Source: an uncultured Hormoscilla sp.
GTDB lineage: Bacteria; Cyanobacteriota; Cyanobacteriia; Cyanobacteriales; Desertifilaceae
NCBI GenBank assembly: GCA_963921275.4
Contig: OZ001293.3
Location: 992,001-1,056,000 of the forward strand
DNA: 64,000 nucleotides
Direction of reading: 5' to 3'
The translations under genes were made by a program, and so were the position numbers. The notes beneath the pieces are model-generated. The model searched no databases. It saw only the letters and a list, made by a program, of their open reading frames with translations, and was not told the DNA's origin. Position 1 is the first letter of the stretch; each line of letters opens with the position of its first letter. Below are positions 614 through 63,839 of this stretch, one piece after another.

Positions 614-2120
614 CCAAAGGACGATCGCAACTTCAACAGAGGCACAGATGCTTGGGGGTCTTGCTGCAATATTTCTGCTGCCGAGGATTCTTTTGCCCGT
701 GCGTGATTGTAAACTTCGCCGTAAGTTATATCCTTCTCTTGCAGTTGGGGACTATAACCACCCCCTGCTAGCACCTCCGGCAGTTCCTCTGACTGGCTTT
801 CGCCGTGATCTGCCAGTATGATATTACCCCGAGCTAGGCTAATTGGCACCGTGCCGGAAAAATCAGACGTTTCTCCGCAAATAGCCTTAGCTACCCACAG
901 AGGGAAAGTCAGAGCATCTTGAACATCCCATTCAATCTCCGTCATCTGCTGTGCCGTATAATCTGGCGGGTTTTTAAATATTCCTGCTAGGGGGTCTTCC
1001 TGGTCAGGATCTACCTTAGTCAAGCGTACCACCTGACGGCGATCGGGATTTCCCGCTTCGCCAGTTTCCGGATTTTTCACCTCTTCTAGTAGCAGCACAT
1101 CTCCAACTTGCAAACCATCGAAACGCCCTTTCAATGTCGCCTTCGTGGCCCCTTTTTCCAGATAAAGCTCAGAAGCACCCCAAGCATAGAATTCCATTTG
1201 ATTGTGCTCTGATCGCAGTTCTTGGTCGTGTAGGGTTTGGAAAATCCTTGCTCCTTTTTTTCCCAGCACCTCGGCAGCATCGCGAGAATCAGGATTAAGC
1301 ACAGGCACCGTGCTTGATGCACCAGTGACTAGCTTTGTATCCCTTTCTAGCACCTCCGGCAGATCCGAACTTAACTCCATGTATACCCAAACCCGGGCAT
1401 TGCAGCCTTCATGTAGAGCATAGTCTACCAGACGACAGTGGCGACGGATAGAAATGCGTTGTCTCGCCCTGCTCAGGTAAGCTTCTGTCGCCACCGCATC
1501 CTAATAATAGCTAGCACTATCAGCAGCATAAGCCAATATTTCCGTTAGCATAATCCCGATATCAGATGGATTGCGCTCTATCCATTCAGGCATCACCACC
1601 GACAAGCGATCGAGTATTAATTGGCGAAAGCTGCTATAGTCCTTTGCTAGATAAGTAATCTCTATATTTTCGCGAACCTTCAACTCCCCGGACTGCTGCT
1701 GTTGCGGGTCAACCTTAGTAACGATCTGATTTGGTTTTCTGAATCCAAAGCTCAGAGCCTTAAAGAACCGATCTAGCCTGGGTATATTAATCAGCTCTAA
1801 TGTATAGGAATTGCTCTGTTCTTCGCTCTCCCCGGCTTTCAACTCATGCCTAACCTCAAGTTTCAGCCGGTTTCCCTGGATCCCCCACTCACCGCTCCAC
1901 CTTTAGTAATGCTGATATTGCCAGCAGTGACTGTTGCGGGAGCCACCTGTTTAATTGTGCCCGATGCTGCTGGCACAAAATAGGCCCATATATTCCACTC
2001 GTCATTCTTGACCCACTCGACCTTAATATAATCAAGCCCTATCTGACTCGGGTGATGACTCAGGGCCACCCGTCGCTGACTTCGGAATTGGTTGTCTGTT
2101 GCGATCTTTTCGTCGATCAT
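614..2120 (-). pseudogene. eCIS baseplate J-like assembly protein (Afp11/12-type), with a frameshift near 1860, in-frame TAG at 1501 and intron interruption at 613
   Basis: ORFs 1863-2120, 1501-1842 and 574-1494 join into one baseplate protein (YLAKDYSSFRQLILDRL...YY*DAVATEAYL...ARGNIILADHG). Confidence 0.85.
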
Positions 2121-2479
2121 AGCGCCCCTCCCTGCTCGAACTGGGCCACTTCTCGTTGCTGATTGCGTCTAATTATATATGTAACTGTCACCTTTAATTT
2201 AGTATCTTCACTCTCTACCCCTAGGCTTTCTACTTGAATCAGTTCTCCCAACCACTCTTGCAAAGATCCTTGTACCATCAATTCTACCGCGCTATTCATG
2301 TCTTGGCTATTGGGAGCAAAAATTAACTGCATTAGACCGGTGCCAAAGCTTGGCCGGTTAACTCGTTCTCCCGGGGTCGTGAAGAGCACTTGCTCGATCA
2401 TCTGACGGATATGTTCTGACCAGTCCGCTTCTGCCACTCGCTTGCGATCGTCTATATGGAAAGGATATGCTATTTCCAT
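2117..2479 (-). CDS. GPW/gp25-family baseplate protein (Afp9-like)
   Basis: IAYPF...IEQVLFTTPGERVNRPSFGTGL motif. Stop overlaps the baseplate gene ATG. Confidence 0.9.
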   Translation of the reverse strand: MEIAYPFHIDDRKRVAEADWSEHIRQMIEQVLFTTPGERVNRPSFGTGLMQLIFAPNSQDMNSAVELMVQGSLQEWLGELIQVESLGVESEDTKLKVTVTYIIRRNQQREVAQFEQGGAL

Positions 2480-2590
2480 TTGTTAATTTTCATTTTAGCT
2501 ATAACTCTCTCACGTCATCATCGGCCTCACCGGTGGCTTAAAAACCCGGCAACTCTGCTCATAACTTACCACACTTACCATTCACAACTA

Positions 2591-3423
<833 letters not shown>

Positions 3424-3424
<1 letters not shown>

Positions 3425-4269
3425 TACATTACTTCTAGTTCCGCACCCGTCCCGTTTTCAATCTTTACTTGCACCTGAGATAGCTTAAGGCCAGCCCCTG
3501 CTTGGTTCTTGACATTGACTTTATTCGAGTCCACCTCTACTGCTGAGCCATCATTGCTTATTTTTATCCCTGATGAAGCTAATTTTACCTCTGACTTACC
3601 GTTCTTTAGCTGAATGCCATCCTGGGTAAAATCTGCCGTAGATGATTTTTTCTTCAATTTCATCCCCTCTGCCACCAGCTTCAACTCCCCCTCTTCCTTC
3701 TCCTTCAGTTGGATATGCTTAGCCGCAACATCCACTATTGTTTCCTGATTTTTAAACTCCAGCAACTCTTCTGTCATTTTTAACAGCGTTTCTTTATCGT
3801 TCTTGATTTCAATCCCCTCCTTATTTAACACCACTTTCAGCAACTTTTTCTCATTCTGGTTATCCTTTTTAGGCATTTTTACTTCCAATGTCACCCCTTC
3901 TTTTTGCTTTCGCCTACTCAAGATGAGAATGAGTTATTCGGTCTTAAAAACTTGAATCTCCGCTGGATCGTTATTTTGTTCGTAAGCCACCTCCGCCTCT
4001 TTAGGCAGTTCATCATCTCCCCAGAAACAGCCGGTCCAAATCGGGCGTTCTCGATTGCCGCCCTCAAATTCTACCCAGACCTTAGCGCCCTTTGGCGGGA
4101 TTGTAAACATCCCTACATCTTTGCCAGCGTATGGCACACAAGGCATGGCCCAGTTTTTGTTATCTGTGTCCAGAACCTCGGGCACGCTTACTTGCAGTCT
4201 GCCCAGCTTTTTGGGGTCTTGATTATTTTTGACTGTACCTCGATATTTTCCCAAAAATTCTTTTGTCAT
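3424..4269 (-). pseudogene. eCIS spike gp5/VgrG-like (OB fold plus beta-helix repeats), frameshifted near 3930
   Basis: FLGKYRGTV...DPKKLGRLQVSVP...WAMPCVPYAG...VWVEFEGG...PIWTG in 3934-4269, continuing in 3424-3921. Paralog of 8695-9510. Confidence 0.85.
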
Positions 4270-12531: not shown

Positions 12532-12828
12532 TCTGTGTCCCCCCTTTTGTGCGGTTACGATGTCTCGGCGATGTGCGATTAATGTGCTCTGCGCAGTGCG
12601 AATAGCGCGCGCAGAGCACATTAGGCAGTGCGAATACGATGTCCCTCGGGTAGTGCGAATACGATGTCCTCCGGGTAGTGCGATTAGCGCTTCCGGAGGA
12701 CATCGAGCTCCCGAGGGACATTGAACGCGCAGAGCACATCGGGGGTAGTGCGACTATGATGTCCCGTGCGTCCGGGGGACATCAAGCGTCCCCTGGAGGG
12801 GGGACATCGAGCTCCCGGGGGACACAGA
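12532..12828. repeat. Multi-layer nest of hairpin micro-elements
   Basis: Outer inverted repeat TCTGTGTCCCCC/GGGGGACACAGA encloses several CGATGTCC...GGACATCG units with TAGTGCGA(A/T)TAGCGC loops. Confidence 0.85.
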
Positions 12829-19497: not shown

Positions 19498-19659
19498 CGA
19501 TGTCTCTGCCAGAGATCTTGTCCAAGGGGACATGGCTGCGCTCCCGCAAGGGATACGGCACACAGGAGACATCGTCTCTGGGTCGAGGTATCTCTTGGGA
19601 GCGCCTTAAGCACTACCCAGGAGATACCTCGCGCCTTAAGCACTACCCCAGAGACATCG
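19498..19659. repeat. Adjacent hairpin micro-elements: one long-loop variant and one two-layer nest
   Basis: CGATGTCTC...GAGACATCG termini. The inner GAGGTATCTC...GAGATACCTC unit has the same loop as the outer unit. Confidence 0.85.
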
Positions 19660-19760
19660 TCTACTGACCGGTACCATGACCTGACCAGTGACAACTAACA
19701 ACTGACAACTAACAACTAACAACATCGAGAGCAACCATCATCCCCGAGTTGGTGCAACGC

Positions 19761-21696: not shown

Positions 21697-21785
21697 CGAT
21701 GTCTCCGGAGAGCTTTCGGTGTCCCCCGAGAGCGCTATTCGCACTACCCGATGGACACTGAACTCGCACTACTCCGGAGACACCG
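21697..21785. repeat. Two-layer nested hairpin micro-element
   Basis: TGTCTCCGGAG/CTCCGGAGACA outer stem around a GTGTCC...GGACAC inner unit. Confidence 0.8.
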
Positions 21786-22074
21786 CTGTCCCATCATTTT
21801 TCAATTTTTCTGACATAAAATACTTTCCTTGTTAGTCGTTACTTGTCCCTTACTGTACAAGTTGCTCTTTATCCGCCTGCATTTACTACTGGTTTTAGTT
21901 CAATCTTACCTAGTCCAATCTTCTGTTATTAGATTGAGGATCTGGACTATTTTATTACCCATATCACTAATATTATATCATTATAGTGCTCTTTTGAATT
22001 ATTTACAAGCCTTGTGTAGGTACTTTCTTTGCCCCGAGCCCAGGGTAAGCGCAAGAATCATGCTTGGGGCATCT

Positions 22075-53020: not shown

Positions 53021-53605
53021 CTACCCAGTAGACATTGCTTTGGCATATTCGACAAAAACATCAAAGTAGCGGTCTTCTTTAAATACACCCGTGTCCAACA
53101 GTTCAAATTCTAACCTGCGGCTTCGATGTCTCCTGGGAGCACTATTCGTACTACCCAATAGACATCGATCGCGCCTTTGATTCTCTTCGACCAACCAATC
53201 ATAAGGATAAGCCCCAAGGGGATATTTGTACAGACCCTTCATATAGGAATGAGTTGGGGTACTGTCAAGATATCAATAATAGTCTTTAACGTTCTCCCCA
53301 TGATTTCCTTGACAGGAAGTCAAGCCAAATGTCCGTTCTTTCAGCATGGGGTCTTTGCCATTCCAGAGGGCAATCTCGAAACACAGTCGCTGGTGGTTAT
53401 CAGAAATTCTCAATATCCCATCTTCTCCCCAGCGATAAGCGCGGTAATGGGATTGTTCGTGGGCAAAATAGTCCCAAGCTGCACCGTCAGGGCTATAATC
53501 TTCCCGCACCGTTCCCCACTGTCGTTCGCTTAAATAGGGACCCCAACGTTTCCAATAAGCTTGGCGGTTTCTGTCTGCTTCTAGTCTTTTTTCTTCCTGA
53601 GTCAT
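53021..53605 (-). pseudogene. MGH1-like (GH63) glucosidase, N-terminal fragment
   Basis: [21 protein letters not shown]...AYRWGEDG...GNHGE.VK.YY...[20 protein letters not shown]. Confidence 0.88.
53120..53167. repeat. 48-nt hairpin micro-element inserted in a HIP1 site
   Basis: GCG[GCTTCGATGTCTCC...GACATCG]ATCGC. Confidence 0.9.
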
Positions 53606-54078: not shown

Positions 54079-54088
54079 AACCTTTGCT

Positions 54089-54133
54089 CGATGTCTCCTG
54101 GGTAGTAAGAATATTGCTCCCAGGAGACATCGA
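54089..54133. repeat. Hairpin micro-element 30 nt downstream of the ftsZ stop codon
   Basis: CGATGTCTCCTGGG...CCCAGGAGACATCG, a perfect 14-bp stem. Confidence 0.9.
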
Positions 54134-54163
54134 AAATGCTCAATCCTGAACCCTAGGCAACAG

Positions 54164-58404: not shown

Positions 58405-58622
58405 GCATTAACGTCACTGGCAAGATCGAACGCAAAGGATTTGGTCCGGGCACTTGGGCTCTGGTAACTGATGAAACTACCTATGAACTTAAAGATGCCC
58501 CGGCTGAGTTATGCCAAGCCGGACTAAAGGTCAAAGTTGCTGGTATTGTCCGAGATGATGTCATGACTTTGGCTATGATTGGTCCGGTTCTGGAAGTTAA
58601 CTCCTTTGAATTGTTGGAATAG
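58401..58622 (+). CDS. Small conserved hypothetical protein
   Basis: ATG overlaps the peptidase stop. G.GTWAL...TYEL...DVMTLAMIGPVLEV. Confidence 0.75.
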   Translation: MSINVTGKIERKGFGPGTWALVTDETTYELKDAPAELCQAGLKVKVAGIVRDDVMTLAMIGPVLEVNSFELLE

Positions 58623-59124
58623 TGGAGGTAGGGGCAAACTCATCTTATTTTTGAGATGAGTTTGCCCTGGAAATCATCCCCGGTATGGTTGTTAGTGCTC
58701 TTGGGTGTGGTCAAAAGTAGTTGATATCCTGGCAAAAAGGATCGACTCGGGCAGATTACAGCGTAGCGAACGTAATACGAAAATAATAAGTAGTATATGT
58801 AATCATTAGTATTACAAGGGCGGGAGCTGCTTATCAACTGGTTAAATAGTCAGATATGACCTTTTCTTCCCAACTGGTTTTGACCGCACCCAGTGCTCTT
58901 GTATATTTAGCCCCTTGGCTTTTTGCTCCCAATTAAGCAAAAGGCCAGAATATTGAATAATTTCGTATCGTAATTCTATGATGATTTACGGAATTCCAAG
59001 AGTTTTCCGATGGCGAGGTAAATAAATTTGAAGTTTTATACTATAACCTTCAACCTTGAACTTTTATACTTCATCAGTCAGACTTCATCATACTTTCTGA
59101 GGAGATAGAAGTCGATAGCTGAGC

Positions 59125-59176
59125 AAAAAACCCTCAGTCTATCAGCTGGGGGAGATAAATCAGGGTGCATCTACCA
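59125..59176 (-). ncRNA. nsiR1: NsiR1-like small RNA
   Basis: Minus strand GGTAGATGCACCCTGATTTATCTCCCCCAG...CTGAGGGTTTTTT, terminator-like end, TCCGGA at about -35, located upstream of hetF. Recognised from memory of the family, not from a search. Confidence 0.75.
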
Positions 59177-59205
59177 TTCCTTTGTTCTCGGGTTTGCCAC
59201 TACCA

Positions 59206-59211
59206 TCCGGA
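59206..59211 (-). promoter_or_regulatory. DIF1-type TCCGGA promoter motif
   Basis: Palindrome 30 nt upstream of the GGTAGATGC start of the sRNA. Confidence 0.65.
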
Positions 59212-59469
59212 TAAATTTTAGCTCGATGTCTCCGCCGTGTCTCCGATGTGCTCTGCGCGCTCGCGGTAGGGTAATTTTTTGGGGTGCATATAAGAGCAAC
59301 TTTTTGGAGTGCTAATCTTATGGGAAGGCGTAGAAATTGAGACTAAATAAAGCTGTTAACGGGAATTGGTCAGTTGCGTAGGGCGGGCGGATCGCCTGCC
59401 CGTCAATTGTCAATTTTGAATGCAGCACGAAGCCTCGATTTGAGAAGCAAGCAGGAGTGCAGGTGAAGT

Positions 59470-62199
59470 GTGACTCAAGAATTTCATCTTTCTGTGACCC
59501 CGGTGGGAGCAGATACCTATTTAGTGCGGACGGAACAGGTGGCTCGTGGCGTGCCACTGGCAGAAGAGCAAGTTGTCTGGCCAGTTTCTGATTGGTTAAA
59601 TCGGGCTCGTCAACTCTATTTAGACCCAATACAGGGCTGGCTAGAGACCCCTGTATTATCAAACTCAGAACCCGCTCTCCCTGTAGCCCCCTCGGGGGCA
59701 CGACCTCATTTATTGTCTCTGGGTCAGCAGCTCTATGAGGCTTTGTTTCAGGGGACTATTCGCGATAGTTGGCTGATCGCTGGGGTGCTGGCCCAGGACC
59801 GGGGCGAAAAGCTGCGGCTGCGGTTGGGACTGAAAACGTCCGATCGCGTAGCGTGCGCTCCGCGCAATCGATGTCTCCTGGGTAGTACGAATAGTGCTTC
59901 CAGGAGACATCGAAGCTGTTTGGCTCGCTTGCCTTGGGAGGTGCTCCATGATGGCTCTCGCCCTCTTGCTACTGGCACGGATGTGGTGTTTTCTCGCTAT
60001 CATCCGGTACATATCTCTTCATTTAATGGCTCTTCCGATCGCGAGTTATCGGCAGATCCCTTAAAGATTTTAATGGTGATCGCGGCCCCGAGCGATCAGG
60101 AAACTCTGGAGCTGGAACGGGAAGCCCGCAATTTGCAAGCGGAACTGCAACTGGCGAATGGGTCTGTTGGCCAAATTCAACTGACTATCTTAGCTCAGGC
60201 GGACCGGGAGCAATTGACTCAAGCCTTGGAACAAGGGAAATATGATGTTTTTCACTACGCGGGCCATAGTAACCTGGGGGTGTCTGGGGGAGAGATTTAT
60301 CTGGTCAGCGGCAGAACTGGTCTGACGGAAAGGTTAACTGGGGACGACCTGGCGGGGTTGCTAGTTAATAATGGTATCCACGTAGCGGTGTTTAATTCCT
60401 GCCGCAGTGCTGATGGGGTGGCCGAGAGGGGCGATCGCAATTTGGCAGAAATCCTAGTCTTGCGGGGTATTCCGGGGGTGTTGGCCATGGCCGAACGCAT
60501 TCCCGATCAAGTGGCCCTCACTCTCAGCCAGCTGCTTTACCGCAACCTCAAGCAGGGCTATCCGATTGATTTGAGCCTGTCTCGTGCTAGACAGGGACTG
60601 ATTTCTGCTTACGGTTCTCATCAGCTGTACTGGGCTTTGCCTATCCTTTACCTCCAGCCTGGGTTTGACGGTTGTCTTACCTCCAACGGCTCCCGAGAAT
60701 GGGATTGTCTGTCTGCTGAACCAGAAGATCAAATGTCCGATGGGACGATTCTGCCAGATGGCGATCGCACCAAAGAACTTGGCTTATACCAGGAGGCGGT
60801 CTCTGGCAAGGATAATGATTTACTGGCTGACAACAATTTAGGCTTGACCTTATATAGTCAAGGACCTATTCATGATGCGATCGGGGTCAAGCAGCTAGCT
60901 GCTTCGATGTCTCTTGGGAGCACCTCGTTCCCAGGCTCTGCCTGGGAACGTACTACCCAGGAGACATCGCTAGCTAATCTGAATTTTGCTGATGCCCATT
61001 ATAACTTGGGGGTGGCTTTTTACGAACAAGGACAGCTCGAACAGGCGATCGCCTCTTACCTCAAGGCGATCGAAATTAATCCTGACTTCGCTGATGCTCA
61101 CAATAATTTGGGCATAGCTTTCTATGAGCTGGGACGCATTGATGAGGCGATCGCCGCTTACCAGCAGGCTCTTGTAATTGACCCCCTCCACGGTAATGCT
61201 AACTATAACTTGAATCTCGCCCGCCTGTCTGGATCCAGACTCTCAGTTGCTGCGCCCACTAAGAGTCTGGATCCTCAAGCAGAACAATTGTCAGCTGTTC
61301 TGGAGAGTGGGAATGAGAATTTATCTCAAGAGCAAATCTCAATTGAGAGTAAGTTTTTGAAATGGCTGTGCTTGGGCATGGGGGTAACTGCTTTATTTTT
61401 GTTCTTCGGGTTGTTTCGCTGGCAGCCTAGTTCCCGGTTGGACCCACTACCTCCCTACCTGGATCCCCCTCCTGCTTCGATGTCTCCGGAGAGCGCTAGG
61501 AGCACTACTTCGGAGACATCGAATGCTAATTCTGACTCTTCTAATGATAACATAAATATTACAGATCGCGCCGCTCAACTTTTCCGTGAGGGTAAGATCG
61601 ACCTCGGGTCAACTGAGGTGGAAAAACTCTTAGACTCGGGCGTGCTCAACTTTGCTTTGGCAGCGATCGCTGCCGTGCCCAAAGACCAAATTAATCACCC
61701 TCGCATCAGTTATCTTCGGGGCCGACTGGCATGGCAGCAGATCCAACAAGGGAACAGCAACTACAGCTTGGACGATGTGCGACGTTTCTGGGAATGGGCC
61801 GCCAAGCAGGAAGGGGATAACCCTATTTATTACAATGCTCTTGGTTTTGCTTATTATGCTCTTGGTAATCTGGATCCAGCTTACTATAGCTGGATCCAGG
61901 TACTGGAGTTGATTAAAAATTCCCAACTACCTGACCAAAAAACACAACAAGTTTGCCCTGTTAATCAAGATGGATTGACTGCTTGTGCTGGGTTAGCTCT
62001 TGTGCTTTTCAAATCTGCCCAGAACCTACCCCTCGACCAACAGGATCCTTTGCTCGATCGGGCTCAAGCCTTGCACCAGCAGGTAATCCAGGCCGATCGG
62101 AGCAATTTTCAGCCCTTGGCCTTAGCTAAAAATAACTGGCTCTGGACCGAAACCGCCATCGCTGATTGGCGATCGCTATTTGTTGAGAATGAGAATTAA
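59470..62199 (+). CDS. hetF: HetF-like CHAT-domain protease with TPR repeats
   Basis: MTQEFHLSVTPVG...VPLAEEQV.WPV..WL, HYAGHS and VFNSC catalytic motifs, LYWALP.LY. Contains three in-frame micro-element insertions. Confidence 0.88.
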   Translation: MTQEFHLSVTPVGADTYLVRTEQVARGVPLAEEQVVWPVSDWLNRARQLYLDPIQGWLETPVLSNSEPALPVAPSGARPHLLSLGQQLYEALFQGTIRDSWLIAGVLAQDRGEKLRLRLGLKTSDRVACAPRNRCLLGSTNSASRRHRSCLARLPWEVLHDGSRPLATGTDVVFSRYHPVHISSFNGSSDRELSADPLKILMVIAAPSDQETLELEREARNLQAELQLANGSVGQIQLTILAQADREQLTQALEQGKYDVFHYAGHSNLGVSGGEIYLVSGRTGLTERLTGDDLAGLLVNNGIHVAVFNSCRSADGVAERGDRNLAEILVLRGIPGVLAMAERIPDQVALTLSQLLYRNLKQGYPIDLSLSRARQGLISAYGSHQLYWALPILYLQPGFDGCLTSNGSREWDCLSAEPEDQMSDGTILPDGDRTKELGLYQEAVSGKDNDLLADNNLGLTLYSQGPIHDAIGVKQLAASMSLGSTSFPGSAWERTTQETSLANLNFADAHYNLGVAFYEQGQLEQAIASYLKAIEINPDFADAHNNLGIAFYELGRIDEAIAAYQQALVIDPLHGNANYNLNLARLSGSRLSVAAPTKSLDPQAEQLSAVLESGNENLSQEQISIESKFLKWLCLGMGVTALFLFFGLFRWQPSSRLDPLPPYLDPPPASMSPESARSTTSETSNANSDSSNDNINITDRAAQLFREGKIDLGSTEVEKLLDSGVLNFALAAIAAVPKDQINHPRISYLRGRLAWQQIQQGNSNYSLDDVRRFWEWAAKQEGDNPIYYNALGFAYYALGNLDPAYYSWIQVLELIKNSQLPDQKTQQVCPVNQDGLTACAGLALVLFKSAQNLPLDQQDPLLDRAQALHQQVIQADRSNFQPLALAKNNWLWTETAIADWRSLFVENEN

Positions 62200-62371
62200 A
62201 AATTGAGAATTGCTTCGAGTATTCCCTCGTTCCCTGTCTCTGGCAGAGAACGCGATCTTGAGGCTCTGCGGACAGTCAGATATCCACGGGAATATCTGTA
62301 GTTGATGCCACTTGATAAAAGACAAAGTTACTGTTACAATATTTAATAGGAGAGAGCAGGAGTTAGTGAGA

Positions 62372-62598
62372 ATGTCAGAGAAACTAATAGCCGACTTGAC
62401 AGTAGACGAACTCAAAGCTTTGATTGCAGAGGTGATAGACGAGCGCATGAGGTACTGGCCAAAATTTGAGCCAGTGGTAGACAAAGTGGCTTTGAAGAAA
62501 ACTTTGGAGTCGATCGACAGCCATATGTGGACACGCTGACGCTACCACCAGGAGCGCGCTCGACGCTGGAAATGTTACGTGAGGATAGAGGCAGATAA
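62372..62598 (+). pseudogene. Antitoxin-like gene, broken near 62537
   Basis: IADLTVDELKALI...PPGARSTLEMLREDR. TAA overlaps the toxin ATG. Confidence 0.65.
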
Positions 62599-62990
62599 TG
62601 GCAACTTATGTAGTTGATACCAGTGTAGTGTTCAGCGTTTCATCATAGAGCAATACACAGGTGCGGGTATTGTTGGAGCGGATGCATCAAGGCGATCAGT
62701 TATATATTCCTGAGTTTTGTACGAGCGAGTGCGTCAAGGTTTTGTGGAAGAATGTTCGCTTTCAAGGACTGCCACAGACAGATGCAGAGCAATTTATTGA
62801 TGAACTGTTGGCTCTAACGTTTCAGATTGTACCAGTCAAGTATCTACTTTTGCAGGCTTTGCAAATTGGCTTGACTCGTCAATTGGCAGTGTACGATTCC
62901 CTTTATATTGCTTTGGCTTTAAAGCTGAATTGCCCATTAATTACAGTAGACGATCGTTAAGCAGCGGCGGCGGCAGAAAACGGTGTTACC
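62598..62990 (+). pseudogene. vapC: VapC/PIN-domain toxin, frameshifted and with a premature stop
   Basis: YVVDTSV...E...L.VYDSLYIALA..L.CPLIT.D. Confidence 0.8.
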
Positions 62991-62998
62991 CTAGTATG

Positions 62999-63839
62999 CT
63001 ATCGCCGCCCCAGTAGCAAACTAATACCTACAAGAGCAAAAGTCAATAAGCCAGCCGTAGATTCTGGTACAGACTTGGGAGAGAAGACAACCTTACCAAA
63101 AATCTGGACATTAATATCTGAGGACTTGTTCCACCCGTTGCCATTGCTATCGACGGTCCCCAAGAATGTGCCCCTCGCATCAAATTCTAGAAATTGATTG
63201 TCCGCACCTTCCTGGGGCGAACCACTCAAGGTAGCGTTGGCAGCGTGGATGTAGGCAGGATAGAAAAAGTCTTGCCCTGGTACTTGACCCCCGAACACCA
63301 AAGCGATATTCTTCTCCACCGGCGATCTCCCAATTGAGATTGTTAAAATCTACTTGCCAAATATTAACTTCCTCACCAAAGTTGTTGTAGTTGGCGCCAT
63401 TGGAATAGGTGACTTAGGTGAATGTCACATTGCTGTCGTTGATAAAGTTGTCAGTCGTTGCAACTGGCGATATATCACTGCCCGACCTATCACCAGTGAA
63501 AAGGGTAACGCTTTCAAACCATTCTCCCAAATTGGCAGGGTCACTAATAGAAAGACCGGGTACTATCCAAGTGCGGATCCTGTCGATCGCATAAGTTTCG
63601 CCAGTTGTTCCTATAGTGAAATCATCACCATAGAATTCTTGGCTATTAACACCGGTGTCCCACCGGATATTAGAGCGGTTTGCGTCATTCCCGTTGAGGT
63701 TTTCTGCTGGCAGTCCCCGTGAGAACAAAAGGGCCCCATGAGCTGGCCCTGTGCTATCGGACAGTACAACTCCAGCAGCGGCGATGGTGGGGACGACTGT
63801 TGCGAGCGCTATATTTTTCCAATTCCTGACCATGTTCAA
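62999..63839 (-). pseudogene. PEP-CTERM sorting-domain secreted protein, stop at 63414 and a frameshift
   Basis: Signal peptide ending AHG/A and C-terminal VPES...TM...GRR. Confidence 0.75.

Follow-up and report, generated by a model that had tools for sequence, protein, structure and literature searches.

The hetF-like gene in the window (the whole 64,000-nt stretch of DNA that was analysed) contains three short stretches that each fold into a hairpin, and the question is what these stretches are and how the gene has stayed intact around them. To our knowledge, it has been an open question ever since the first descriptions of the smallest bacterial repeats (SDR-like, 20 to 50 nt) how such repeats move. 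A first-pass annotation had proposed that the three stretches are in-frame insertions of a mobile structured micro-element. Comparing the source genome (G000) with four same-genus relatives (G001 to G004), we found empty sites, about 390 places in the genome with related sequence, and covariation within the hairpin, all of which support that proposal. The three inserts probably belong to a genus-restricted, very small, non-autonomous mobile hairpin family that works like REP, SDR, and RPE repeats.

Three hairpin copies in an intact hetF-like gene

One open reading frame runs through all three stretches, which were present where the first-pass annotation had placed them (Table 1). Its 909-amino-acid product has a CHAT domain at residues 151 to 393 (Pfam PF12770, E = 1.6e-26), TPR repeats at residues 507 to 572, and, in an alignment of orthologues, the conserved N-terminal block and C-terminal domain that are features of HetF. 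Full-length HetF orthologues were found in 4/4 same-genus genomes and in other genera, and NsiR1 lies upstream of hetF (Rfam, 50.1 bits). By its CHAT domain, its conserved blocks, and the upstream NsiR1, the host gene is predicted to encode HetF, a CHAT-domain protease.

The core of copy 1 has the ends CGATGTCTC...GAGACATCG, and the frame reads 16 amino acids across 59869 to 59916. GCTT occupies 60901 to 60904 at copy 2 and 61474 to 61477 at copy 3, and the frame reads these copies as (A)SMSLGSTSFPGSAWERTTQETS and (A)SMSPESARSTTSETS, respectively; the inserted peptides include ASMSPESARSTTSETS. Folded as single-stranded DNA, copies 1 to 3 all form, on both strands, an outer stem of about 14 bp, a 1-nt bulge, a 5-bp inner stem, and a 5-nt loop, which confirms the hairpin drawn in the first-pass annotation. 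Fold energies ranged from -16 to -25.9 kcal/mol, with z scores from -5.6 to -9.2 (-7.9 and -8.6 for the strands of copy 1; -9.0 and -9.2 for those of copy 2), and 0/200 shuffles folded as well for each of the six strands.

In addition to the three hairpin copies, the gene holds two other kinds of micro-insert that the first-pass annotation had not separated from them. The total insert at site 1 in G000 is 69 nt and consists of the 45-nt hairpin and a separate 24-nt repeat piece. This piece is found only in G000 and is missing from G002 and G003, which do have copy 1; the genome has 4 exact matches to its 20-mer and 45 at up to 2 mismatches, and 168 matches to a 14-mer of it at up to 1 mismatch. 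The second kind is a hairpin element of about 24 nt inside the loop of copy 2, so that the 69-nt length of that stretch is that of a hairpin copy with a second-order element within it. The second-order element is missing from copy 2 of G002 and has 19 strict and 61 loose matches in the genome. A piece of this type takes the place of the 5-nt loop in other copies among relatives, at G000:2713627 and G000:2715780.

Table 1. Positions of the host gene, the hairpin copies, and the accompanying inserts in the window. A, apical-module orientation; a slash within a sequence marks the junction of an empty site.
Feature	Position	Strand	Basis and remarks
hetF-like ORF, 909 aa, intact	59470..62199	+	ORF call, Pfam, orthologues
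24-nt repeat piece, GTAGCGTGCGCTCCGCGCAAT-like, adjoining copy 1	59847..59870 (limits ambiguous by a few nt)	.	hetF DNA alignment
Hairpin copy 1	59869..59916	A orientation on -	core 59869-59912, AAGC to 59916; nhmmer 54.1 bits
Hairpin copy 2	60903..60969	A orientation on +	TT + core 60905-60969 with nested insert
Second-order hairpin element, ~24 nt	60925..60948	+	core TTCCCAGGC-nnn-GCCTGGGAA; sits in the loop of copy 2
Hairpin copy 3	61476..61523	A orientation on +	TT + core 61478-61521 + AA; nhmmer 55.1 bits
Further full-length copy	53122..53168	+	nhmmer 49.2 bits; empty in G003, GTGCGG/CGATCGCGCC
Further full-length copy	54087..54134	-	nhmmer 49.6 bits
Further full-length copy, nested in another copy	12660..12707	-	nhmmer 34.0 bits; variant covarying termini CGATGTCCTC and GAGGACATCG

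Empty sites and the length of the unit

The alignment of HetF orthologues, a check suggested with the first-pass annotation, revealed unoccupied sites for the first two copies. G001, G004, and 10/10 other-genus orthologues aligned lack the insert at site 1 (CCGATC/GCCGTTT), which is filled in G002 and G003; the metagenome contig X5 also spans this site without the insert, joining 59847 to 59918. Site 2 is empty in G001 (GCTGCC/CAAGCT) and filled in G002, G003, and G004. All five genomes have copy 3, which in all four relatives is a remnant decayed via in-frame deletions (a 24-nt internal deletion in G001 and a 39-nt 5' deletion in G002, G003, and G004). Read from this alignment, copy 3 would be older than the genus and now decaying, copy 2 would have arrived after the split of G001, copy 1 would be the newest, and the nested 24-nt pieces would be later still.

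Only one RNA library, X15, had related sequence (0.08 of sampled words), present as contigs of a relative. Its hetF-like contig has a short copy 3, with 24 nt missing at 61487, and is without copy 2, 60899 being joined to 60983 with 17 other letters in between; the library may contain DNA, so the contig is not proof of mRNA. Contigs from X3 stop at the copies and are uninformative on polymorphism.

Two clean sites fix the length of the unit. At hetF site 1 (net insert 59871 to 59915 or 59870 to 59914) and at the copy at 53122, which lies inside a HIP1 octamer and is empty in G003, the net insert is 45 nt with a 1-nt ambiguity. The element thus adds exactly 45 nt, or 15 codons, and the 48-nt unit given in the first-pass annotation has to be corrected. 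No target duplication beyond 1 nt was seen, the ambiguity at clean empty sites being 0 to 1 nt. The CTAGCT reported on both sides of copy 2 is likewise not a target duplication: the right side reads CCAGCT in the relatives, and the empty site of G001 has CCAGCT once.

Presence and absence also vary at other places. The copy at 54087 has shortened forms in G002, G003, and G004 and is missing in G001, whose flank has diverged there; the copy at G000:2713627 has an empty site in G002; and G002, G003, and G004 lack the 213-nt composite of the ARC6 gene. We examined 30 places, of which 17 had flanks that could be paired with a relative, and 4 of these 17 were empty in some relative; the other 13, with flanks not pairable with the relative loci compared, are excluded from this figure. 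Copies with exact termini numbered 65 in G000, 32 in G004, 22 in G003, 20 in G002, and 3 in G001. The hairpin element is polymorphic between close relatives. Only about five clean empty sites were seen, which counts against the explanation that we favour.

A conserved apex on a covarying stem

The first-pass annotation had noted, from the hetF copies, that the sequence varies while pairing is kept, and this holds across the family. Among 134 unselected distinct copies, 89.7% of cells were paired, compared with 81.3% (standard deviation, 0.3) in shuffles, and double changes were found at most outer-stem pairs. Among 40 selected copies, 12/19 pairs had changed on both sides, a value reached by 0/500 shuffles. 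The outer stem covaries freely, whereas the apical module AGCGCTAnTCGCACTAC, which includes a bulge and a single fixed mismatch, is conserved. G17, C18, C20, G26, C27, C29, T30, A31, and C32 are invariant columns, and the fixed position, C18/A28, is C.A on one strand and G.T on the other. The termini covary as well (CGGTGTCTC, CGATATCTC, CGCTATCTC, and others), and the middle is conserved. Next to the apical stem-loop lies an invariant CACTAC, which is GTAGTG on the opposite strand; GTAGTG overlaps both bulge and inner stem and is enclosed in the 14-bp outer stem. Because both strands fold about equally well, these data leave undecided whether DNA or RNA is the active form and which strand is active. 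Choosing a strand from wobble pairs was also tried and given up, the strands being alike apart from the fixed C18/A28 position.

Insertion sites and nesting

Preferred sites read ...G[G/C]C^G, followed by the 3' motif AnGnnTcATT. A target logo built from 80 copies that are not nested and have unique flanks gave A 50 at +1, G 47 at +3, A 55 at +8, T 51 at +9, and T 40 at +10, with CTT at -3 to -1, and the 3' tail motif was already there in three empty sites. At offset +3, this tail is similar to the consensus terminus GAGACATCG (3.66/9 identities, compared with a background of 2.23). It does not covary with the arm of the copy beside it, so guidance of insertion through base pairing with the element is not indicated; target recognition by pairing with the element's own arm was dropped, since tail identity to the own arm was 3.44, compared with 3.45 when shuffled.

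The target bears on the possibility that the element spreads through RNA, being transcribed, folding as an RNA hairpin, and returning to DNA at recognised sites through reverse transcription or reverse splicing. Precise, duplication-free insertion at a sequence-specific target would be expected of such a route, as in retrohoming; the compensatory changes preserve the stem, the invariant non-Watson-Crick position would, on the strand that carries GTAG, form a G.U wobble, and copies within genes are certainly transcribed. However, the tail lacks the covariation just described, G.T and A/C mismatches outside the fixed position are nearly equal between the strands (52 versus about 60), and no Rfam family matches. 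We consider spread through RNA unlikely.

Loops of hairpins are a second kind of site. Copies nested in the loop of another copy make up 41/134, five nested composites have 89-nt cores (44 + 45), and three copies occupy the loop of the genome's classical REP. Junctions depend on this context: at C^G sites, the insert is TTCGATG...CATC, and in loops, it is TCGATG...CATCG, while the second-order element substitutes for a loop instead of being plainly inserted. From context-dependent junctions and loop replacement, no single cut-and-paste rule can be derived, and this counts against the favoured explanation.

Such junctions could instead arise with no dedicated mover at all, if template switching between hairpins during replication or repair (by copy-choice or gene conversion), with the aid of short homologies, had spread the unit. 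The junctions, which have 1-nt ambiguities and vary by context, the substituted rather than interrupted loops, the preference for palindromes (HIP1, the loops of REPs, and those of the element itself), and the frequent in-frame partial deletions of copies are all consistent with this idea. Harder to reconcile with it are the identical 45-nt unit at unrelated sites, a motif that reaches 10 nt past the junction without covarying with the copy, and a conservation of the apex that far exceeds the needs of pairing, and we regard template switching as quite improbable.

Size and range of the family

A search of the genome for more copies, also proposed at the outset, found hundreds. In G000, the two terminal 9-mers had 253 and 249 exact matches, all on contig C1; 130 pair within 150 nt, 49 of these 130 with a 44-nt core. 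An nhmmer search (E <= 1e-3) gave 405 matches, or 388 distinct places in the genome, and full-length copies lay at 201 distinct places with 148 distinct sequences. There are also sub-families with common termini and different interiors, 11 members having 41-nt cores and some about 55 nt. Outside the source genome, a covariance model matched 5/41 related genomes, every one of the same genus; the exact pattern was found in 1/401 genomes sampled across the phylum; and in the species collection, 72/72 matches listed fell in Hormoscilla records. The family was found only in one genus, Hormoscilla by record titles.

A Rfam search of positions 58500 to 63000 (E <= 1) gave no match on the copies and returned only NsiR1 and a chance lncRNA match. 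Literature searches found no description of the hairpin element, those with the terminal 9-mers returning only primer and shRNA matches, and a word search of the main text of Hormoscilla genome papers found no mention of such repeats. Within these searches, the element did not coincide with an already described family, and we read it as an undescribed REP/SDR/RPE-like selfish hairpin.

Candidate movers

The first-pass annotation had seen no cognate enzyme in the window; genome-wide, we found no parent insertion sequence (IS), and RAYT-like genes do not track the element. Perfect inverted repeats at the termini, sub-families that share those termini around different interiors, and the many IS copies in the genome would suit an ordinary MITE, that is, a deletion derivative of an IS moved by a DDE transposase that recognises terminal inverted repeats. 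Yet pairs of termini (up to 1 mismatch) lying 400 to 4000 nt apart had no recurring spacing, and none enclosed a transposase. Target duplication does not go beyond 1 nt, and covarying termini around a conserved middle are the reverse of a MITE. The 45-nt length is far under the 70 to 300 bp that a passage in PMC3733652 gives as usual. An origin as a MITE is therefore very unlikely indeed. A set of 16 + 18 copies that looked like an autonomous element proved to be the interior of an IS transposase gene. The 33 neighbouring copy pairs, 250 to 3500 nt apart, shared no architecture.

Orientation along the chromosome was unbiased (105 versus 96), with no replichore pattern, which counts against IS200/IS605-type insertion into the lagging-strand template, since that would predict a bias. 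The invariant GTAGTG beside the apical stem-loop would suit another HUH-type candidate, in which the element would be a GTAG-type REP derivative moved by the genome's RAYT (REP-associated tyrosine transposase). GTAG-tagged REPs occur in cyanobacteria, also within ORFs, according to a passage in PMC3733652; Y1_Tnp genes are present in 5/5 genomes of the genus; and the lack of target duplication and the three copies inside the loop of a classical REP are consistent with such a mover. On the other side, the sole Y1_Tnp gene of G000 (C1:241783-242256) has arrays of another GTAG-type REP, GTAGCCCGCGCAGGCGGGC, on its flanks, and the nearest element copy is more than 3 kb away. An orthologue of this gene (84 to 85% identity) was found only in G003 and not in G001, G002, or G004, which hold from 46 to at least 136 copies, and Y1_Tnp homologues with 52 to 64% identity occur in four genera without the element, so no single HUH gene tracks the family. 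The 14-bp outer stem surrounding the tag, nesting in place of REPIN doublets, and the absence of a strand bias also speak against RAYT. With its own different REP at its flanks and a mismatched phyletic pattern, RAYT was rejected as the leading mover, and we judge this derivation distinctly improbable.

For the mobile hairpin family that we favour, the stem can be any pairing sequence and the apex is fixed; from this we infer a trans-acting, structure-specific enzyme that would read the folded single strand by its apex. The fixed parts available for recognition would be AGCGCTAnTCGCACTAC, the bulged base, and the invariant C.A (G.T on the other strand). By analogy with HUH/Y1 "peel and paste" movement, the element most likely moves as single-stranded DNA that would be inserted, with no duplication, at C^G sites or in hairpin loops. 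A further step, which we put forward tentatively and think rather unlikely to be right, is that this is an undescribed mode of moving DNA. A host- or element-independent enzyme would read the hairpin apex (GTAG module, bulge, and wobble) on an arbitrary stem and paste 15 codons, duplication-free, into C^G sites upstream of AnGnnTcATT or into hairpin loops, and the same logic would apply to the nested SDR-type elements.

Copies inside protein-coding genes

Stop-to-stop ORFs of at least 200 amino acids contain 48/201 copies, compared with 52% of 5000 random positions. Long ORFs enclose at least 35 copies, and 15/20 host ORFs tested had Pfam families, PEP carboxylase (PEPC), GltB, MetRS, GlyS, Omp85, and ARC6 among them. 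The copy in PEPC sits in a loop about 31 amino acids longer than its maize counterpart. These host proteins suggest that the element adds peptide loops to many real proteins besides HetF, as had been proposed. One Ser/Thr-rich reading frame is used by 23/35 internal copies. Length modulo 3, tabulated inside and outside coding sequence as the first-pass annotation had recommended, was biased toward the frame: composite (non-canonical) lengths were multiples of 3 for 14/20 inside ORFs and 11/33 outside (Fisher p = 0.012).

Four to five of the element's six frames are open. Because the unit is also a multiple of 3, insertion into a gene merely adds a 15-amino-acid loop. Selection would then retain copies in tolerant loops and linkers and would favour one hydrophilic frame (SMSPGSA-RTTPETS) together with in-frame composites and deletions. 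That hetF is intact with three copies would follow from such insertions and from selection for tolerated, in-frame copies.

Comparison with known repeats

Elhai et al. are said to have described, in 2008, the small dispersed repeats SDR1 to SDR8 in Nostoc punctiforme and relatives and reportedly proposed RNA-mediated spread for these cyanobacterial SDRs. The hairpin element resembles them as a very small dispersed hairpin repeat of filamentous cyanobacteria with compensatory changes, nesting, and a narrow taxon. Both insert precisely into HIP1: SDR5 goes in after the third nucleotide and before the fourth in the octamer, according to a passage in PMC4390886, and the hairpin element goes between the first and second or the second and third at two clean sites. 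The unit differs in size, with 45 nt compared with 21 to 27 nt; the second-order piece nested in it, at about 24 nt, falls within the SDR range. Further differences on the side of the hairpin element are its 14-bp outer stem around a conserved apex, its 10-nt 3' target motif, its dozens of copies that would be translated within genes, and its non-heterocystous genus, Hormoscilla. We would set it apart from SDR1 to SDR8 by their description rather than by sequence identity.

Rickettsia palindromic elements (RPEs) are about 100 to 150 bp long, and their host is an obligate intracellular alphaproteobacterium. Like RPEs (Ogata et al. 2000, cited in passages of PMC3184786 and PMC3733652), the hairpin element is a palindromic repeat found in frame within many genes, housekeeping genes included, as a tolerated peptide segment. 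It is only 45 nt long and nests, and since no sequence relation is expected, the likeness is one of description.

With GTAG/CGTC-tagged REPs, and REPINs with RAYT, as treated by Di Nocera et al. 2013 (PMC3733652) and Bertels and Rainey 2011 (PMC3116915), the element shares short imperfect palindromes, hundreds of copies, a GTAG that may correspond to the tag beside their stem-loop, presence of some copies in ORFs, and occurrence in cyanobacteria. It differs in not flanking a RAYT-like gene, in its extra covarying outer stem, and in nesting where REPs form inverted doublets. Cyanobacterial MITEs (Nezha, MaeMITE, and those of Anabaena), which a passage in Delihas 2011 (PMC3184786) describes as 130 to 435 bp long with flanking direct repeats and ends that match known IS, are likewise non-autonomous, with empty and filled sites between relatives and occasional ORF fusions; the hairpin element has 45 nt, no duplication, and no parent IS that we could find. 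As in IS200/IS605-derived (PATE-like) elements, it inserts without duplication beside a fixed short target, but it is a single symmetric hairpin rather than distinct left and right sub-terminal hairpins and lacks a replication-linked orientation bias.

Implications

The family offers handles on how micro-repeats move: a unit of constant length (45 nt), a stem free to covary below a conserved apex, a 10-nt target preference, levels of nesting, and differences in presence and absence among five close genomes and natural metagenomes. A free-standing cyanobacterial genome of 7 Mb appears to tolerate 15-amino-acid inserts in enzymes regarded as essential, namely PEP carboxylase, glutamate synthase, two tRNA synthetases, Omp85, the division protein ARC6, and HetF, and one hydrophilic frame is clearly filtered for, which turns the family into a natural test of the places at which proteins admit loops. 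If the mode of movement is indeed an undescribed one, such micro-elements would form a transposon class of their own among bacteria, with a 3n length that would be adapted to life inside genes, and would steadily supply proteins with new loops. In practice, copies break short-read assemblies at insertion places and inflate the apparent divergence of orthologues in this sponge-symbiont genus. The host cyanobacterium is itself sponge associated.

Hairpin copies in hetF

The first-pass annotation took three stretches in hetF for copies of a mobile, structured micro-element that inserts in frame, and this reading holds on the strength of empty sites, genome-wide copies, and in-frame inserts. The window covers positions 992001 to 1056000 of contig C1, and the host gene in it is a single open frame of 909 amino acids. 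Its hetF label is sound because the product combines a CHAT domain (PF12770, E = 1.6e-26, amino acids 151 to 393) with TPR repeats detected with Pfam, and because a match to NsiR1 (RF02399; 50.1 bits versus a gathering score of 39) lies on the minus strand about 300 nt upstream. In heterocyst formers, NsiR1 is described upstream of hetF; Hormoscilla is not known to form heterocysts. All three stretches lie where the annotation had placed them, and the frame stays open through each with the peptides that it had quoted. Every copy also folds as DNA into the described hairpin on both strands, with energies of -16 to -25.9 kcal/mol and z-scores of -5.6 to -9.2, and in each of the six folds none of 200 shuffles equaled the copy.

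We aligned the HetF protein and gene from four other genomes of the genus (G001 to G004) and ten genomes of other genera. The empty sites that such an alignment had been proposed to reveal were found for copies 1 and 2. Site 1 is filled in the source genome (G000), G002, and G003; it is empty in G001 and G004 and in every other genus aligned, and a metagenome contig from run X5 joins 59847 to 59918 across it. Site 2 is empty in G001, and a contig from run X15 is without copy 2 and carries copy 3 in a short form. All five same-genus genomes carry a copy at site 3, shortened by in-frame deletions in G001 (24 nt, internal) and in G002, G003, and G004 (39 nt). Outside hetF, G003 has an empty site where the window carries its copy at 53122, G002 has one in place of the copy at G000:2713627, and a 213-nt composite in an ARC6-like gene is absent from G002, G003, and G004. 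Among 30 places in five regions, 17 could be paired with a relative, 4 of them empty there.

A repeat family with a conserved apex

The source genome contains the two terminal 9-mers 253 and 249 times, always on the chromosome contig; they pair within 150 nt in 130 cases, 49 of which have a 44-nt core and 11 a 41-nt core. A search profile made from the 49 copies with the 44-nt core gave 405 matches at E <= 1e-3, corresponding to 388 distinct places, so the predicted further genomic copies exist; 201 places are full length and comprise 148 distinct sequences. These showed no orientation bias (105 versus 96) and no pattern along the chromosome. An oriented copy of this 45-nt element reads (C)TT, CGATGTCTC, five variable stem bases, and AGCGC-TAnTC-GCACT, followed by a bulged A, a C, the complementary stem bases, and GAGACATCG.

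The outer stem varies through paired substitutions that extend into the termini, whose variants include CGGTGTCTC/GAGACACCG, CGATATCTC/GAGATATCG, CGATGTCCC/GGGACATCG, and CGCTATCTC/GAGATAGCG. In 134 distinct unselected copies, 89.7% of stem cells were paired, versus 81.3% in 500 shuffles (standard deviation, 0.3; maximum, 82.2). A set of 40 copies, biased because it was picked for good folding and diverse stems, had two-sided changes at 12 of 19 pairs, with observed values reached by none of 500 shuffles. The apical module (the inner stem-loop with its bulge) is near-invariant, including one C/A mismatch that is G.T on the opposite strand. MITEs have conserved ends and a free middle; the hairpin element, with its conserved apex and varying termini, inverts that pattern.

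Two sub-families are bounded by the same outer termini, CGATGTCTC/GAGACATCG, around interiors that differ markedly (see the table). In the main family, about 20 copies have CAAAAGGGG in place of CTAC and the stem, and their hairpin is weakened by this.

In a phylum-wide sample of 401 genomes, 1 had the exact pattern. Among 41 relatives, covariance-model matches were confined to the five same-genus genomes (under a ceiling of 150 scored candidates, at least 150 in G000, 136 in G004, 121 in G003, 120 in G002, and 46 in G001), where copies with exact termini number 65, 32, 22, 20, and 3, respectively. When the species collection was scanned for the apical module, all 72 of the matches listed were in Hormoscilla sp. 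records.

Copies inside genes

Genes are avoided about twofold, far from fully: 48 of the 201 full-length copies lie in stop-to-stop frames of at least 200 amino acids, versus 52% of 5,000 random positions. From 44 host frames we picked 20 with an internal copy for a Pfam search, and 15 contained families at E <= 1e-5 (5 had none), among them PEP carboxylase, Omp85, GlyS, glutamate synthase, AmiC-type amidase, ARC6, MetRS, TPP enzyme, and hybrid kinase. The copy in PEP carboxylase lies in a stretch about 31 residues longer than in the maize enzyme. Among 35 internal copies, the frame TCG ATG TCT (SMSPGSA-RTTPETS) accounts for 23; another 5 share its orientation but not its frame, and 7 have the opposite orientation. 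A comparison of length modulo 3 inside and outside frames had been suggested, and it revealed a bias: multiples of three made up 14 of the 20 composites of nonstandard length within long frames, versus 11 of the 33 outside them (p = 0.012).

Junctions and the proposed transposing activity

At two clean sites, the net insert is exactly 45 nt; its ends are ambiguous by 1 nt, and nothing is duplicated. Another copy's apical loop is the site for 41 of 134 copies, the junction falling after GC(T) and before TAnTCGCACTAC; five composite cores of 89 nt (44 + 45) were found. For 80 non-nested copies whose flanks are unique, information in the 3' flank extends to +10 and no further (A+1 in 50, G+3 in 47, A+8 in 55, T+9 in 51, and T+10 in 40). 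Because empty sites already have this tail, it is a target preference and not part of the element. When copies were compared with their own termini, the tail did not track the variant terminus.

No recurrent long pair of termini was found in the source genome. A RAYT-like Y1_Tnp gene (158 amino acids from the ATG) lies outside the window, with two REP units upstream and about six downstream, all of the classical GTAG type (GTAGCCCGCGCAGGCGGGCTTTG-like); these flanks indicate a separate REP/RAYT system. We rejected this gene as the leading candidate for the mover, as the gene, the only one of its kind in the genome, is flanked by arrays of that different repeat, its ortholog occurs only in G003, and homologs with 52 to 64% identity occur in element-free genera. 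Elsewhere in the genome, three 45-nt hairpin copies sit in classical REP loops. Since these searches identified no enzyme, we commit only to a trans-acting, structure-specific activity, which we infer to recognize the folded apex. The apex-recognizing activity more likely acts on single-stranded DNA; the main rival reading is spread of the element by an RNA route.

Relation to known repeats

In 2008, Elhai reportedly described SDRs as very small repeats that nest and that undergo compensatory changes. Palindromic repeats lying in frame are familiar from RPEs and from REPs in ORFs, according to two reports (PMC3184786, PMC3733652), and a third has SDRs targeting HIP1 (PMC4390886). The hairpin family differs from SDRs as described, from RPEs, and from REPs in size, architecture, and target. 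We found no description of it in the literature searched, nor by word search in the main text of two Hormoscilla genome papers. The family is a selfish micro-repeat, and it is mainly of interest as a well-marked system for learning how repeats of this kind move.

Neighboring repeats and other observations

A separate 24-nt repeat piece precedes copy 1 in the source genome, and a hairpin of about 24 nt is nested in copy 2 but missing from that of G002. At two other loci, a piece of this nested type (about 24 nt) substitutes for the 5-nt loop of a copy in relatives, for a net gain of 21 nt. The relatives' hetF genes (loci L002 from G003, L003 from G002, and L005 from G004) hold more in-frame micro-inserts exactly at HIP1 octamers, a position that recalls the reported siting of SDR5.

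A different 48-nt repeat immediately follows the hetF stop codon. A metagenome contig from run X6 joins 62220 to 62269 across it, its borders show loose ends on both sides in several runs, and the genome has 5 near-full copies and 18 partial matches. Small repeats nested in each other also form dense arrays, made up in part of hairpin copies whose termini vary, heptamer runs of the GCGTAGC type, and GTGCTCTGCGC-like pieces. Several families of micro-elements apparently target each other there.

Positions and junctions of the features described (window coordinates unless a contig or locus is named)
Feature	Position	Length	Detail
hetF open frame	59470-62199		
Copy 1 (site 1)	59869-59916		
Copy 2 (site 2)	60903-60969		
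Copy 3 (site 3)	61476-61523		
NsiR1 match	59123-59176		minus strand
Clean junction, hetF site 1			AAACGGC^GATCGG, on element's strand
Clean junction, second site			GTGCGGC^GATCGCG, inside HIP1 octamer
ARC6 junction			GATCGGC^GCAG
Sub-family, 41-nt core		41 nt (core)	contains GGGTTTTCGCCGTGCGTCC
Sub-family, longer core		~55 nt (core)	contains TGTGCCG..CCCTGGGACAAGAGCA
Example sub-family places, G000	C1:230509, 672259, 845478; C1:3318250, 3322496		
HIP1 micro-inserts, relatives' hetF	aligned to about 60431 and 60764		
Palindromic piece, relatives' hetF		24-27 nt	inside GCGATCGC (GCGAT...ATCGC), HIP1 octamer
Second HIP1 micro-insert, relatives' hetF		15 nt	GCGATCGCTGCGCGAAAAATCGC
G004 hetF insert	near 60800	72 nt	
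Repeat past hetF stop codon	62221-62268	48 nt	
Nested arrays	12558-12700, 19560-19660, 21697-21800		
Y1_Tnp gene with flanking REP units (L131)	G000:C1:241500-242700		
~2 kb repeat	L060 about 1725-3795 = G000:C1:1041225-1043295	~2 kb	
~0.5 kb repeat	L060 17700-18300 = G000:C1 about 1057200-1057800	~0.5 kb	

Contig C3 of the source genome (31,420 nt) has 17.6% G+C, versus 47% for the chromosome, and may be foreign DNA or assembly contamination. Two longer repeats (about 2 kb and about 0.5 kb), probably insertion sequences, recur in the same-genus genomes, each with dozens of copies that are 70 to 85% identical.
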